A DNA stretch of 20,000 nucleotides from Acidimicrobiia bacterium (GTDB taxonomy: Bacteria; Actinomycetota; Acidimicrobiia; Spongiisociales; UBA11373), in the NCBI GenBank assembly GCA_040878325.1, contig JBBDMM010000009.1, forward strand, positions 54,131 through 74,130, written 5' to 3'. The translations under genes and the position numbers were made by a program. Below, in pieces: positions 12,135-19,948 of this stretch. The notes below the pieces were generated by a model. That model did no database searches. It had not been told where the DNA came from and was given only the letters and a program-made list of their open reading frames with translations. The stretch's first letter is position 1. Each line of letters opens with the position of its first letter.

Positions 12135-12217
12135 GGGGGGCTGCCCGAGCGGCCAAAGGGAGCAGACTGTAAATCTGCCGGCTAACGCCTACGGAGGTTC
12201 AAATCCTTCGCCCCCCA
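12135..12217 (+). tRNA. tRNA-Tyr (GTA)
   Basis: GGGGGGC/GCCCCCC acceptor stem, GCAGA-CTGTAAA-TCTGC anticodon arm, long variable arm, GGTTCAAATCC. No encoded CCA. Confidence 0.97.
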
Positions 12218-12316
12218 CGGCGGCCTTCGTTCGCCGCCTTACCGGCGGCGAACTTGCCCCCTGCTGCTCAGCGGCCGCTGGGCGCTGAGCATTGACTATC
12301 CTGCCGACGCCTACGC

Positions 12317-12388
<72 letters not shown>

Positions 12389-12418
12389 CAGGCGGCGACG
12401 GTATTGTGCTGTCGCCGA

Positions 12419-12490
12419 GGCGGCGTAGCTCAGAGGTAGAGCACCCGGCTCATAATCGGGTAGTCGGTGGTTCGAGTCCACCCGCCGCTA
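12419..12490 (+). tRNA. tRNA-Met (CAT), elongator type
   Basis: GGCGGCG/CGCCGCT acceptor stem and CCCGG-CTCATAA-TCGGG anticodon arm. It lacks the initiator C1:A72 mismatch. Confidence 0.93.
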
Positions 12491-12535
12491 CGCACCCGGC
12501 AACGTCGGATCGACACAACGAGGAGATCGGAACCC

Positions 12536-13729
12536 ATGGGTAAGGAGAAGTTTGAGCGGTCGAAGCCGCATGTGAATGTGGGGACGATGGGTCATATTGA
12601 TCATGGGAAGACGACGTTGACTGCTGCGATCACGAAGGTGTTGGCGGAGTCGGGGGTGGGTGGGTCGAATCGGTTTACGGCGTTTGATGAGATTGATAAG
12701 GCGCCGGAGGAGCGTGAGCGGGGTATCACGATTGCGATTGCGCATGTGGAGTATGAGACGGCGAATCGTCATTATGCGCATGTGGATATGCCGGGTCATG
12801 CGGATTATGTGAAGAACATGATTACGGGTGCGGCGCAGGTGGATGGTGCGATTCTGGTGGTGTCGGCGGCGGATGGTCCGATGCCGCAGACTCGGGAGCA
12901 TGTGTTGTTGGCTCGGCAGGTGGGGGTGCCGTTCATTGTGGTGTTCTTGAACAAGGTGGACATGGTCGATGATCCCGAGCTTCTTGATCTGGTGGAGTTG
13001 GAGGTGCGGGATTTGTTGACGGAGTATGAGTATCCGGGTGATGAGGTGCCGGTGGTGCGGGGTTCGGCGTTGAAGGCGTTGGAGGGTGATGGGGAGGCTG
13101 CGGGTCAGGTGATGGAGTTGATGGCGGCGGTGGATTCGTATATCCCGGAGCCGGAGCGGGATGTGGATAAGCCGTTCCAGATGCCGATCGAGGACGTGTT
13201 TTCGATTACGGGTCGGGGGACGGTGGTGACTGGTCGGGTGGAGCAGGGGATTTTGCGGGTGGGGGCGGAGGCGGAGATTGTGGGGATCCGGGCGACGCAG
13301 AAGACGACGGTGACTGGGGTTGAGATGTTCCGCAAGTTGTTGGATGAGGCGCGGGCTGGCGACAACGTGGGGCTTCTCCTGCGGGGGATTGGTAAGGAGG
13401 ATGTGGAGCGGGGTCAGGTGGTGTGTGCGCCTGGGTCGATTACTCCTCATACCGATTTCTCGGCGCAGGTGTATGTGTTGACGAAGGAGGAGGGGGGGCG
13501 TCATAACCCGTTCTTCTCGGGGTATCGGCCGCAGTTCTATTTCCGGACGACGGATATCACTGGTTCGATCACGTTGCCGGAGGGGACGCAGATGGTGATG
13601 CCGGGTGACAACACGGAGATGACGGTGGAGTTGATCCACGCGATCGCGATGGAAGATGGTTTGCGGTTCGCGATCCGTGAGGGTGGCCGCACCGTCGGCG
13701 CCGGCCGCGTCGTCAAGATCATCAAGTAA
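12536..13729 (+). CDS. tuf: Elongation factor Tu
   Basis: [19 protein letters not shown] and NKVD motifs, C-terminal [17 protein letters not shown] at 12521-12525. Confidence 0.99.
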
Positions 13730-13730
13730 C

Positions 13731-13770
13731 CCAGCCACAGCCACAGCCCCAGCAAGACAAGAACAGAGAA
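13731..13770 (+). repeat. Hexamer array (CAGCCA)n ending GCAAGACAAGAAC
   Basis: Read directly, immediately after the tuf stop codon. Confidence 0.6.
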
Positions 13771-13781
13771 GAGTTTTCTAG

Positions 13782-14018: not shown

Positions 14019-14879
14019 ATGAGCCACCTCGCCGGCCTGGTCGGCCATTCCTACGGGCCGTTCACGGTTGAGGTGACCGCCGATCGGGTGGCCGAGTTCG
14101 CCGACGCCACCGGTGACGACGCCGCCAGGTGGGTGGAGCATGCGCCTCCGCTGTTCGCCAATGTCGCCCTGTTCGCGGCGGCTCCAGCGTTTCTCGAAGA
14201 CCCGGCGGTGGTGCCGTTCACTACGTCGTTGATTCACTCCGAGCAGTCGTTCGAGTGGCATCGCAGCCTGCAGGTTGGTGAGCGGCTTCGAATAGTGGGC
14301 AAGGTCGAGGGGGCCAAGGCCCGGTCGGGGCTGAACCTCGTCACGTTCGGCCTGCAAGCCGAATCGGATGCCGGCGAGTGGCTCGACGGGAGGGCAGTGT
14401 TCGTGATGGCCGACGCGGCCGCGGGCGCCCTCCCCGAGCAACCCGAGCCCGCGGTCGGGGAACGACCGGCGACCGACCCGCCCGCACCGTCGAGGCCACT
14501 GCCGATTGAAGGGGAGCCGATCGTCCCGCTGAACGCGGGCGCATCCCGCCTCGACCTGGTGCACTATGCCGCAGCCACCCGCGACTGGAATCCGATTCAT
14601 TGGGATCACGATTCGGCCCGCGCCGCCGGTTTGTCAGGGACGATCGTCCATGGCCTGCTCATGGCGGCATGGATGGGCCGGGCCGCGGCTCGTTACTCGC
14701 CGAACGCCCACTCGCTGGCGGCGATGAGCGTGCGGTTTCGTAAGCCGTTGCGACCGGCCGAGCCGGCGACGGTCACCGGCACCGTCGGCGCAATCGCTGC
14801 TGACGGAGCCGATATCGATCTGGTCCTCGAATCCGGGGGAGACCGGCTGGTGACGGGCCGCGCCCGGGTAACGCGATGA
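14019..14879 (+). CDS. Double hotdog MaoC-type (3R)-hydroxyacyl dehydratase, HadA/HadB-like fusion
   Basis: N-terminal VAEFADATGD and LIHSEQSFEWHRSL (HadA-like); C-terminal YAAATRDWNPIHWD..A and HG (hydratase-2 motif, HadB-like). Sits after rpmG as hadAB does. Confidence 0.85.
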   Translation: MSHLAGLVGHSYGPFTVEVTADRVAEFADATGDDAARWVEHAPPLFANVALFAAAPAFLEDPAVVPFTTSLIHSEQSFEWHRSLQVGERLRIVGKVEGAKARSGLNLVTFGLQAESDAGEWLDGRAVFVMADAAAGALPEQPEPAVGERPATDPPAPSRPLPIEGEPIVPLNAGASRLDLVHYAAATRDWNPIHWDHDSARAAGLSGTIVHGLLMAAWMGRAAARYSPNAHSLAAMSVRFRKPLRPAEPATVTGTVGAIAADGADIDLVLESGGDRLVTGRARVTR

Positions 14880-15424
14880 CCGGGGGCGGGGTCCAACGCG
14901 ACGAGGCCGAGCTCATCGAGGCCGCCCGGGGTGGTGACTCGGATGCATTCGGAGAACTCGTCTGGAGGTATCGAAACAGCGTGTACACGCTTGCCGTCAG
15001 GCTCGTCGGTCCCGACCTCGCCCCCGATGTGACCCAGGAGGCGCTGATTCGCGCCTGGCGTGCCATGCCGCGGTTTCGGGGCGACGCCGCACTGGGAACC
15101 TGGCTGCATCGGATCACAGTCAATACGGCGTGGACCCTTCGCAAACGAGCCAACCGGCACGAGGTGCAGCAGCTCGACGAGATGCTGATCGACCCTGCCA
15201 CCGGCCCGGAGCGAGCGGGGGAGCTGGCGGAGGTGAGAGCGGAACTCGGTTCGGCGATCAACCAGTTGAGCCCCGGTCAGCGAGCGGTGCTCGTGTTGCG
15301 GGACGTCTATGGGTGGAGCCACGCCGAGGTCGGGCGCGAGCTCGGCATCACCCAGACCACTGCGAAGGTGAGGTTGCATCGGGCGCGCAAGCGGGTTCGG
15401 TCGATCCTCGAGGGGTCGGAATGA
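14876..15424 (+). CDS. ECF-family RNA polymerase sigma factor
   Basis: Region 2 (DVTQEALIRAW, FRGDAALGTWLHRITVN) and region 4 (LSPGQRAVLVLRD..G.SHAEVG, KVRLHRAR). Confidence 0.93.
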   Translation: MTGGGVQRDEAELIEAARGGDSDAFGELVWRYRNSVYTLAVRLVGPDLAPDVTQEALIRAWRAMPRFRGDAALGTWLHRITVNTAWTLRKRANRHEVQQLDEMLIDPATGPERAGELAEVRAELGSAINQLSPGQRAVLVLRDVYGWSHAEVGRELGITQTTAKVRLHRARKRVRSILEGSE

Positions 15425-16105: not shown

Positions 16106-16387
16106 ATGAACCGCGAGTTGCGGCGGCTACAGGAGATGGAAGAGAAGCGGGCGAAGGATCGTCGCGCTCAGGCGATGACGCAACGGCGTCGTAAGGAGCG
16201 CGTCGGCTTCCGCCAGTTCGTATCCGAGGTCCGTACCGAACTTCGTCGGGTGGCCTGGCCGGGAAGGCGCGAGACCATCACCTTCACCGTGGTCACTCTC
16301 ATCACTGCAGGGTTCGTCACCCTCTACACCCTCGGGCTCGACCTCACGCTCAAGCGCGGCATCCTGGCGCTTCTGGAGTTGCGGTGA
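16106..16387 (+). CDS. secE: Preprotein translocase subunit SecE
   Basis: FVSEVRTELRRVAWPGRRE motif plus a single TM segment, between tRNA-Trp and nusG. Confidence 0.93.
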   Translation: MNRELRRLQEMEEKRAKDRRAQAMTQRRRKERVGFRQFVSEVRTELRRVAWPGRRETITFTVVTLITAGFVTLYTLGLDLTLKRGILALLELR

Positions 16388-17160
16388 ACGACGAAACCCT
16401 TGACGACCTGACTGCAACACCGGACCCGGCCGACGATGCCGCCGATTCCCCGGGGGACGCGCTCGACCGCGCCCGTGAGCTCTTGGGTACGTCGATCGCC
16501 ACCGAGGAGCGCCCCGAGGAGCCCGAGGCCGAGGTGTCGGCGGAGGAGGAGCCGGTTGGTTCCGCCCCCGGCGAGGGGGCCGAAGGCGGGGCCGAACCGG
16601 TGCGTCCGCCCTCGAGCCCGTTCGACCTGCCGGGATCGTGGTTCGTGATCCACTCGTACAGCGGCTACGAGAACAAGGTCAAGGCCAACCTCACCACCCG
16701 CATCACCTCGATGCACATGGAGGACGCCATCTTCGACGTCGTCATTCCGATGGAGGATGTCGTCGAGATCAAGAGTGGGCGGAAGGTGACCGTGGCCCGC
16801 AAGCAGTTCCCGGGTTATTTGCTGGTGCGCATGTACCTCGACGACGACTCATGGGGCGTGGTCCGCAACACTCCCGGCGTCACCGGATTCGTCGGATCGG
16901 GTACCAAGCCGACTCCGCTGTCGCGGCGCGAGGTCGAACGGATCCTCGGCGTCCGCAAGGACGAGGAGAAGAAGGCACCCAGGTTCAAGCCGGATTGGGA
17001 AGTGGGCGAGACGGTTCGGGTCACCGAAGGCCCGTTCGCCGATTTCAACGGCGTCATCGAAGACATCAACCTCGACCAGTCGAAGGTCAGGGTTCTCGTC
17101 GACATCTTCGGCCGGGAGACCCCGGTCGAGCTCAACTTCGAGCAGATTCAGAAGTTCTAG
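16384..17160 (+). CDS. nusG: Transcription termination/antitermination factor NusG
   Basis: WFVIHSYSGYENKVK, FPGYLLVRM, VRNTPGVTGFVG and a KOW domain ending IFGRETPVEL; acidic N-terminal extension. Confidence 0.98.
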   Translation: MNDETLDDLTATPDPADDAADSPGDALDRARELLGTSIATEERPEEPEAEVSAEEEPVGSAPGEGAEGGAEPVRPPSSPFDLPGSWFVIHSYSGYENKVKANLTTRITSMHMEDAIFDVVIPMEDVVEIKSGRKVTVARKQFPGYLLVRMYLDDDSWGVVRNTPGVTGFVGSGTKPTPLSRREVERILGVRKDEEKKAPRFKPDWEVGETVRVTEGPFADFNGVIEDINLDQSKVRVLVDIFGRETPVELNFEQIQKF

Positions 17161-18873: not shown

Positions 18874-19557
18874 ATGCCACGACCAGAAAAGGTCCAGGCG
18901 GTTGCCGACATCAAAGAGCGTCTCGAGGGTTCGTCGGCCGTCTTCATGGCGGAATTCGCCGGCCTCTCGGTGAAGGAGCAGCGGGCTCTGCGTCGTGCCC
19001 TGAGCGACGCCGATGGTGACTTCAAGGTCTACAAGATGACCCTCGCCCGAATTGCCGCCACCGAGATGGGACGCGACGAGATACTCGAGATGCTCGTCGG
19101 TCCGACGGGTCTGACTTTTGCCAGGGGCGACGCGGCGGCGACCGCGAAGGTGCTGCGCGACTTCTCCAAGGACCATGCCAGGCTGATCATCAAGGGCGCT
19201 CTGCTGGGCACCGAGGTCCTCACGCCGGAGCGGGTTGCCGCTCTCGCCGATCTCGAACCGCGCGATGTGCTGCTGGCGAAGATCGCCGGCGCATTGCAGG
19301 CGCCGATGGCGGCGATGGCCGGCCTGATGGCGGCGATGCCGCGCAACCTCGCCTCGATGATCAAGCAGTTGATCGACAAGTCCCCGGCTCCAACAGCCGA
19401 ACCGGCTGCTTCGGCAGGCGAAGAGGAGTCTGCAGCCGAGGCTGTCGTCACCGGCGACGACGCCCCCGCTGAGGCAACCACCACTGACGACGATGCGGCC
19501 GCCGCGGCCGAGGTAATCACCGAAGATGAAACGGCCATAAAGGCCGAGGAGGAATAG
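18874..19557 (+). CDS. rplJ: 50S ribosomal protein L10
   Basis: [30 protein letters not shown] and L.GPT motifs; SD AAGGAG; acidic C-terminal tail. Confidence 0.97.
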
Positions 19558-19561
19558 ACCA

Positions 19562-19948
19562 ATGGCAACCAAGCTCAGCCACGACGACCTGCTCGAGGTC
19601 TTCGCGAACATGTCCGTGCTCGAGCTCTCCGAGTTCCTCAAGGAGTTCGAGGAGAAGTTCGATGTGACGGCCGCCGCCCCGATGGCGATGGCGATGGCGG
19701 GAGGCGGCGGTGGCGCTGCCGCGGTCGTCGAGGAGCAGGACGAGTTCGACGTCATCCTCACCGGTGCCGGCGACAAGAAGATCCAGGTGATCAAGGAAGT
19801 CCGCAGCCTCACCAGCCTCGGGCTCAAGGAGGCGAAGGCTCTCGTCGACGAGGCGCCCAAGCCCGTTCTCGAGCACGTCTCCAAGGAAGACGCCGAGAAG
19901 GCGAAGGCCATCCTGGAAGGCGCCGGAGCCACCGTCGAGATCAAGTAG
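19562..19948 (+). CDS. rplL: 50S ribosomal protein L7/L12
   Basis: [23 protein letters not shown] and [17 protein letters not shown] motifs. Confidence 0.99.

Follow-up and report, generated by a model that had tools for sequence, protein, structure and literature searches.

The tuf gene in a 20,000-nucleotide stretch of an Acidimicrobiia genome, referred to here as the window, is written in G- and T-ending codons almost to its end and then turns abruptly to C-ending ones. The question is what could recode a housekeeping gene on one strand in this way and spare its last codons. Strand-polar gene conversion between two tuf copies, filtered by mismatch repair, is the best explanation found, with a probability of about 0.65.

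Composition of tuf in the window

The gene (12536-13729, plus strand) begins with ATG at 12536, ends with TAA at 13729 and encodes 397 amino acids, in which all three EF-Tu Pfam domains were found. It is a tRNA-linked copy in a tufB-like position, preceded by genes for tRNA-Tyr (12135-12218), tRNA-Thr (12317-12389) and tRNA-Met (12419-12491), a plus-strand cluster (12135-12491) that is unskewed, and followed by rpmG (L33; 13782-13943, plus strand), secE, nusG and rplKAJL. A fused double hot-dog dehydratase (FAS1-like DH and MaoC) and an ECF sigma factor are encoded at 14019-15424 (plus strand), between rpmG and tRNA-Trp/secE; we take the position of the dehydratase between rpmG and secE to recall that of hadABC in mycobacteria. 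The NusG open reading frame (16384-17160, plus strand) has about 80 acidic, low-complexity residues ahead of the NusG domain. A 99-base tRNA-Cys called by ARAGORN at 19236-19334 (minus strand) is antisense within rplJ and probably false.

Four-fold sites of the window tuf were G 0.73, T 0.19, C 0.08 and A 0.00, and T made up 0.65 of two-fold C/T sites and G 0.98 of two-fold A/G sites. The fusA gene of the same genome had four-fold G 0.30, T 0.09, C 0.56 and A 0.04, with T at 0.14 of two-fold C/T sites. The keto score was defined as the fraction of synonymous third positions occupied by G or T. Among 1481 called genes of at least 150 amino acids (mean 0.44, standard deviation 0.049), the two tuf copies of this genome ranked first and second (0.86 and 0.84); the ranking used our own ORF caller, which gave the window tuf a 23-codon upstream extension, and from the true start its score was 0.87. 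The preliminary description, made from the sequence alone, had noted T- and G-ending codons almost throughout the gene, a claim borne out by the top keto rank and the four-fold composition. Its hand counts were exact (32 G and 6 C at 13081-13140; 27 and 10 at 12601-12660; 19 of each in rplL at 19621-19680), and the sliding-window GC skew that it had proposed as a check placed the genome maxima for 500-bp windows at the two tuf tracts (0.47; genome standard deviation 0.066), G standing to C at about 9:1 on one strand in tuf.

The recoding occupies codons 2-383 (12539-13684, plus strand), peaks at the 5' end and is weaker toward the 3' end. The best changepoint was codon 384 (nucleotide 13685), in agreement with the abrupt reversion about 14 codons before the stop that had been described: 254 of 290 informative synonymous sites were G or T before it and 0 of 12 after it, all 12 sites of the tail (codons 384-397, 13685-13729, plus strand) being C. 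The composition of the tail was close to that of single-copy tuf tails. Codons 2-383 retained 36 C-ending codons, 30 of them ATC, TTC, AAC, GAC or CAC. Two small patches of normal appearance, seen by eye at the outset, are real: one at 12944-12976 (TTC, AAC, GAC, GTC, CCC) and one at 13328-13378 (TTC, CGC, GGC, GAC, AAC, CTC), both on the plus strand, with five of the six four-fold C's of codons 2-383 lying within 12965-12976 and 13331-13378.

A second copy of tuf

A near-identical second tuf (C17:44944-46137, minus strand) was found 3' of fusA; the preliminary description had presumed one at the rpsL-rpsG-fusA locus. As assembled, the copies are 1194 bases long and differ at just two of them, 13726 and 13729, which fall in the last two codons; they are identical over 12532-13725 (plus strand). 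Their proteins are 100% identical to each other and at most 92% identical to those of relatives. Beyond the gene only four bases are shared upstream and none directly downstream, so the tRNA genes and rpmG lie outside the repeat. Both copies are G/T-skewed and co-oriented with replication, on the leading strand as assigned from contig-wide GC skew.

This is the tufA/tufB arrangement, one copy after fusA and the other in a tRNA-rpmG-secE cluster. Concerted evolution of such pairs by gene conversion has been described in a Salmonella model (PMC5485169) and in six phyla including Actinobacteria (PMC6053082). The window pair resembles them in its two contexts, in identity confined to the coding sequence and in paralogues that are closer to each other than to orthologues. 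In the available text of these papers, conversion starts uniformly, runs both ways and has no effect on base composition (PMC5485169; PMC6053082), whereas here the pattern is strand-polar and graded; the word skew does not occur in the available text of one of them (PMC6053082).

A short A/G-rich motif (13753-13773, plus strand) recurs 3' of the C17 copy, where its spacing from the stop differs slightly, and is a relic of a longer shared sequence. Short tandem repeats of 6-7 bases directly follow both stops (13730-13773 in the window and the C17 counterpart), and after them comes a shared 20-base purine-rich motif that is present after tuf in another genome (G009) too. The gene after the second tuf (C17:44164-44880, minus strand), rpsJ by sequence and position, encodes about 135 additional N-terminal residues, in which Ala, Lys and Pro abound.

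Homogenisation of the window copy with a second tuf, as first suggested, is upheld in that two copies exist and do not diverge across the skewed tract. The skewed tract and the identity tract do not coincide, as had been supposed they might: the C-ending last 14 codons are common to both copies, so the end of the skew is not the end of identity. A skew that stops where identity stops was rejected on this ground, identity running through the tail.

Horizontal replacement and a collapsed assembly consensus had been listed as alternatives, and the tract could in principle be foreign DNA or the consensus of another organism, since one assembly path could yield 1194 identical bases in two contigs of a draft genome. 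Twenty-three sequence runs were listed, and one sediment run contained 0.81 of the words. Against such an origin, the closest proteins to the window tuf (91-92%) come from the same family and their genes are skewed too, the skew is present from the start codon onward, and the encoded protein is intact. Moreover, each of five single-contig genomes (G008, G167, G123, G357 and G102) carries two near-identical, skewed tuf genes in this same pair of contexts. Since relatives at the level of family and order, single-contig genomes included, show the same skew, both horizontal replacement and a collapsed consensus are unlikely, and an origin of the tract in another organism is given very little probability indeed.

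Copy state and skew among relatives

The search for tuf covered 40 relatives and 400 genomes of the phylum, the latter picked without prior knowledge of composition or repair status. Both copies were taken for 68 of the 88 phylum genomes with multiple matches and for 3 relatives, together with 51 single-match genomes; the comparison totalled 123 actinobacterial genomes. In genomes of this phylum, tuf matched named Streptomyces, Leifsonia, Collinsella and Solirubrobacterales sequences at 93-96%, which places the window in Actinomycetota. The 20 multi-match genomes left out comprised 7 of one genus (in which the second match, where checked, was a distant paralogue), 1 unpublished genome, 1 with a broken copy and 11 others. 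Pairs were called near-identical at 97% identity or more, a cut-off fixed after the first composition comparison had been seen. Group figures rest on neighbour-gene controls, a fusA control having been discarded for its roughly 70 junk N-terminal residues. NucS and MutS_I were searched for in all compared genomes (G243 for NucS only). The window genome encodes a NucS with NucS_N and NucS_C domains (C10:155755-156420; E 1e-35 and 1e-22), and a family search of this genome, which is 98.9% complete, gave no match to MutS_I.

Among genomes with NucS, 26 of 27 near-identical pairs had keto scores of 0.61-0.94. Less similar pairs scored 0.55 (96.5% identity) and 0.63 (92.6%), pairs that had diverged to about 86% scored 0.42 and 0.45, and 23 of 26 genomes with a single match scored 0.35-0.49. 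In the three skewed single-match genomes, tuf lies at or near a contig end (G021 and G243) or the assembly is 69% complete (G022); a second copy is likely hidden in each because these assemblies are fragmented. One genome with NucS (G104) scored 0.40 despite a tuf pair of 99.1% identity (L097, L098). Its copies are 626 kb apart, in a family that is otherwise single-copy, and perhaps arose by recent duplication.

Copy state gave eight independent contrasts on the tuf tree after omission of six genomes of unsure copy number; six to seven were as predicted and none against (p about 0.03). Within one genus, a near-identical pair scored 0.84 (G038) and a diverged pair 0.45 (G421), and duplicates that are no longer converting (G421 and G333) had normal composition. 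The comparison of one-copy with two-copy relatives proposed at the outset shows that skew tracks near-identical duplicates. Judged from these sequence comparisons, the skew requires such duplicates, and we are highly confident that it depends on gene conversion. Third tuf copies were seen in two genomes: a C-rich one of 71% identity alone on a 1.2-kb contig (L006, G025:C1), probably contamination, and one that looks frameshifted, with three stops in the match (L458, G756:C13).

Ordinary leading-strand mutation bias, exposed by relaxed codon selection on two copies, could also be invoked. Both tuf copies are on the leading strand, where transitions to G and T outnumber the reverse in the data available for C. 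glutamicum (PMC6159521) and for Streptomyces nucS mutants (PMC11109965). Leading and lagging genes of the window genome differ in keto score by just 0.048, however (0.460 and 0.412; 875 and 530 genes), against an excess of about 0.4 in tuf. The normal composition of duplicates that ceased converting also speaks against it, as does the report that C. glutamicum has no transversion strand bias (PMC6159521, in the part available), and homogenised copies do not escape selection independently. This explanation is therefore considered improbable.

Mismatch repair and skew

Homogenisation alone is insufficient, because all 24 near-identical pairs from genomes with neither NucS nor MutS were unskewed (keto 0.34-0.53). 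A keto excess over neighbour genes greater than +0.15 was found in 23 of 24 NucS pairs and in 0 of 23 no-repair pairs. All 23 no-repair pairs with controls were below their neighbours, that is, more C/A-ending (median -0.09, compared with -0.01 in singles; e.g., L020, L064 and L065), possibly through an opposite bias arising from the greater stability of G/T-type mismatches when repair is absent. NucS pairs gained both G over C and T over C (23 of 24).

In other phyla, a pattern scan gave at least 80 named loci, of which 31 were chosen after their composition had been seen, hence not blindly, and 16 pairs were taken. Among the matches listed, MutS pairs of at least 97% identity with controls gained G over C in 10 of 11 cases and T over C in 2 of 11; one of the 11 (G436) also had a weak NucS-family match. 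The 13 MutS pairs inside the phylum, all from one family (f35; L066-L078), scored 0.36-0.66, kept or raised A, and gained G over C in 4 cases and T in 6, so that no simple rule fits them. Four-fold A was up in the f35 pairs (to at most 0.32) and in that of G440 (L304; 0.61), and G+C was down.

The presence of NucS among pairs is clumped on the tree, giving one independent contrast on well-supported branches and three on all branches before genomes of genus g300 were added. A class-wide search of 400 class genomes found NucS in 340 of 401; of the 61 genomes lacking it, 12 had their tuf inspected, in addition to four from the earlier comparison. Families f16 (24 genomes), f17 (3) and f83 (3) yielded no NucS in any genome, nor MutS where tested (G178 and G222), and it seems that several lineages of actinobacteria carry neither of the two systems. 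Two nested contrasts emerged. In G031, nucS is missing from its syntenic place between sufB and a sigma gene, and the tuf skew is limited to the first 40 codons. Within g300, a pair with NucS scored 0.70 (G728) and a genome in which no NucS was found scored 0.39 (G714), whose duplicate is deduced from a pair of 3' fragments that have the same score and lie on different contigs. Five further genomes without NucS had a single, unskewed tuf; two had only unskewed 3' fragments, which say little (G762 and G700), and one had no usable tuf locus (G703).

Three genomes run the other way. G756 has a strongly skewed pair (0.84) and no nucS by family or protein search (96% complete). G009 scored 0.91 without nucS, the whole nucS-sigma region being missing from its assembly (91% complete), and G657 has a skewed 5' tuf fragment and no nucS that could be found. 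Recent loss of nucS or assembly gaps could lie behind these cases. Apart from the exceptions noted, the NucS, MutS and no-repair groups appear, at the level of sequence, to behave as a repair filter on conversion predicts.

Conversion might instead create the skew directly, by way of damaged single-stranded DNA or of faulty synthesis during repair (deamination, tautomers), and the link to NucS would be a by-product, the enzyme having been inherited together with another trait of recombination or of the polymerase. The few independent events in the NucS contrast and the skew of G756 and G009 without detectable nucS favour this, and a paper on skewed repeats (GRINS), in the portion available, puts forward tautomer errors of the polymerase and reports that the repeats are associated with RuvA (PMC8256042). 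It leaves unexplained why 24 no-repair pairs are unskewed and all 23 with controls shift in the opposite direction, and deamination does not produce the G-over-C transversions, which form a large component. Repair specificity is followed instead by the G-only pattern of the MutS phyla, among the matches listed, and by the nested contrasts of G031 and g300. We regard direct damage or faulty synthesis as unlikely, though as the strongest of the competing accounts.

Gradient along tuf and codon constraints

In 25 of 26 NucS pairs the skew was stronger in the first half of tuf than in the second; NucS singles had a smaller first-half excess (18 of 23; median 0.034 vs. 0.088 in pairs). Over the last 14 codons the score dropped in 26 of 26 pairs, to 0.26, much as in single copies (0.25). 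These values do not support, as a general rule, reading the tail as a reversed C/A block, and the 12 of 12 C in the window tail is only somewhat above the general level. Tail skew was not correlated with how much downstream sequence the two copies share (rho 0.24, p 0.23); in a genome with 83 shared downstream bases (G029) the skew continues to the stop.

The ratio G/(G+T) in tuf tracked the GC content of neighbouring genes (rho 0.75, n 23), and T was avoided before A (0.25, compared with 0.43-0.58). No clear amino-acid shifts were seen in EF-Tu; the sole mover was the choice of Leu codons, from CTN to TTR (373 of 713 vs. 26 of 610). A toy equilibrium model with tuned parameters reproduced the window composition, as an illustration and not a test.

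Selection seems to oppose the G/T shift, because the resistant codons are TTC, ATC and AAC. The converse proposal, that selection favours G/T-ending tuf codons for translation speed, mRNA structure or control of two-copy dosage, can point to a pattern inherited over many lineages and to the avoidance of T before A, which implies that some constraint acts. Against this, C is preferred in single-copy tuf, as it is in other highly expressed genes, the resistant codons suggest selection in the opposite direction, and the non-coding spacers of duplicated rRNA operons shift likewise in two of three cases. Codon selection as the cause is accordingly thought very improbable.

Other repeats and strand context

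The preliminary description had asked whether other multicopy sequences share the skew. The spacer sample consisted of 30 loci from 37 genomes and the window genome. In NucS genomes, G+T of the 16S-23S spacer was 0.47-0.55 in 16 single-operon genomes and 0.67, 0.62 and 0.54 in three two-operon genomes, two of which are shifted; without NucS it was 0.43-0.54 in 11 single-operon genomes and 0.44 in one two-operon genome (108 bases only). The 16S rRNA itself was uninformative (0.50-0.52 everywhere). DUF222 genes showed only a wider spread in NucS genomes (standard deviation 0.11, 26 of 30 loci scored) than in others (0.06, 30 loci), which weakly supports the link to NucS; copies on the leading and lagging strands of two closed genomes (13 and 8 copies) did not differ.

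The other strongly skewed tracts in the window genome are presumably for the most part mobile genes: two Rep genes of the rolling-circle type, two DUF222-type genes, one serine recombinase gene and two IS481-type elements. No near-identical copy of the skewed mobile genes was found in the assembly, which speaks against conversion filtered by repair. In favour of its proposed direction, the strand rich in G and T coincides with the leading strand, as inferred, in the Rep, DUF222 and recombinase tracts, including two tracts coded on the lagging strand. In all, 38 of 42 keto tracts genome-wide match their flanks in sign, although many of the 42 are ordinary genes. On the plus strand, both IS481-type elements (C6:273854-274861 and C4:103480-104484) have a G/T-rich left half and a C/A-rich right half. 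Polarity of replication and of transcription cannot be separated at tuf because the two directions coincide there.

Proposed mechanism

The two tuf copies would homogenise by gene conversion, which mismatch repair would filter in a strand-polar way. By analogy with its C. glutamicum and M. smegmatis homologues, the NucS of the window genome is taken to cut G:G, G:T and T:T and not C:C, A:C or A:A. In the presumed intermediate, the leading-sense strand of the recipient would usually be paired with the lagging-sense strand of the donor. Where the recipient has C or A, the mismatch would be invisible and the base would be overwritten by the G or T of the donor; where it has G or T, the mismatch would be visible and the base kept; in the long term, C and A on the coding strand would become G or T. 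The choice between G and T would be unfiltered and set by GC pressure, with which the observed G/(G+T) trend agrees, and selection would retain only some TTC, ATC, AAC and GAC codons. With MutS, only C to G would escape, and without repair no such bias would arise. More tentatively, heteroduplex coverage may fall toward the fork-distal end, which would account both for the weakening of the skew from 5' to 3' and for its absence from the last 14 codons; a leading-strand bias that fades fork-distally would give both the tuf gradient and the two-part profile of the insertion sequences, with copies in both orientations. A lagging-strand gap, a template switch or a broken fork is a candidate for the intermediate that sets the polarity.

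The published specificities, so far as the available text of each source goes, are largely in line with this scheme. EndoMS of C. glutamicum cleaves G/T, G/G and T/T (PMC6159521), and NucS specificity divides G/T from A/C, the same division as the tuf skew (PMC6159521; PMC11551744). When oligonucleotides were placed on the lagging-strand template of M. smegmatis, C:C, A:A, C:A, A:C, G:A and A:G changes were kept and G:T and G:G changes lost (PMC11551744), which is the polarity that the mechanism requires; repair in that system is short-patch (PMC11551744). MutS corrects C:C very poorly and G:G best (PMC3167615). NucS restrains recombination between non-identical sequences (PMC8228993). A preprint counts against the mechanism: it suggests that, while conversion takes place in mycobacteria, repair by NucS is lowered rather than active (PMC13061034).

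The preliminary description had envisaged a conversion tract carrying a strand-specific mutation bias. The homogenised pair and its connection with the skew are retained, whereas a mutation bias carried by the tract fits less well than repair acting on conversion, and the bias looks like such a filter.

Relation to known systems

GRINS are skewed repeats for which the available text gives no established cause (Nivina 2021; PMC8256042). They are defined there as duplicated tracts longer than 500 bp with more than 80% DNA identity and with mean absolute GC skew and TA skew each above 0.15, GC being taken in 150-nt windows with a step of 30. The tuf tract shares 1194 bp with C17 at two differences, its mean absolute GC skew is 0.41 over 35 windows (0.04-0.10 in rplA, rplJ and nusG), and its mean absolute TA skew, 0.162, is narrowly above the limit. 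As in GRINS, which are commonest in actinobacteria, the recoding is at third positions (PMC8256042, as available). GRINS also occur in transposases and endonucleases (same source), as skew does here in IS481-type, Rep and DUF222 genes. The tuf tract differs in its GC-TA skew correlation (r 0.21, compared with 0.70 in that paper, a typical trait outside the formal definition). It is also a single long G/T block with a gradient, an abrupt end and a neutral tail, with no long opposite block, where the GRINS described there alternate in blocks with abrupt changes of sign; and it lies in a housekeeping gene rather than a polyketide synthase, the gene class whose diversification GRINS are thought to speed (PMC8256042). 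The tuf pair is a real, inherited GRINS-type tract in a housekeeping duplicate. No mention of tuf or NucS was met in the text of the GRINS paper available to us, whose figure data and further datasets might list tuf (PMC8256042).

NucS/EndoMS, which the window genome has in two-domain form without MutS, is described in the available text for replication errors, oligonucleotide recombination and homeologous recombination (PMC6159521; PMC11551744; PMC8228993). A preprint, in the part available, proposes that conversion-linked asymmetry of NucS repair may reshape M. tuberculosis paralogues, without strand polarity (PMC13061034). A literature search that covered few subscription journals found no description of a skewed tuf and no paper linking NucS to GRINS or tuf.

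GC-biased gene conversion is a fixation bias from mismatch repair in heteroduplex DNA; it is strand-symmetric and raises G+C. On the proposed mechanism, the tuf pattern would be like it in being a fixation bias through repair of heteroduplex, but four-fold G+C in tuf is unchanged or lower (0.81 vs. 0.83 genome-wide), and the bias sets G/T against A/C on one strand.

Biological significance

Across phyla, the tuf pair varies both in copy state and in repair system, which makes it a natural experiment, and it points to a single gene, nucS. More broadly, each bacterial mismatch-repair system may mark repeats by strand-polar conversion (NucS with G/T on the leading strand, MutS with only G over C, and no repair with slight C/A), a general, non-selective force that would explain GRINS in polyketide synthases, insertion sequences and rRNA spacers; we offer this extension tentatively, at odds slightly below even. 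If true, such a force would be a counterpart to GC-biased conversion, and the gradient in tuf would be a record of the site and direction of ectopic heteroduplex at replication forks. If the NucS filter itself holds, repair chemistry would set the codon usage of a very highly expressed gene against translational selection, and a tuf of this kind would mislead codon-adaptation indices, detectors of horizontal transfer, composition-based binning and DNA-level phylogenies. In uncultured genomes, tuf skew could reveal hidden duplicates and past repair systems.
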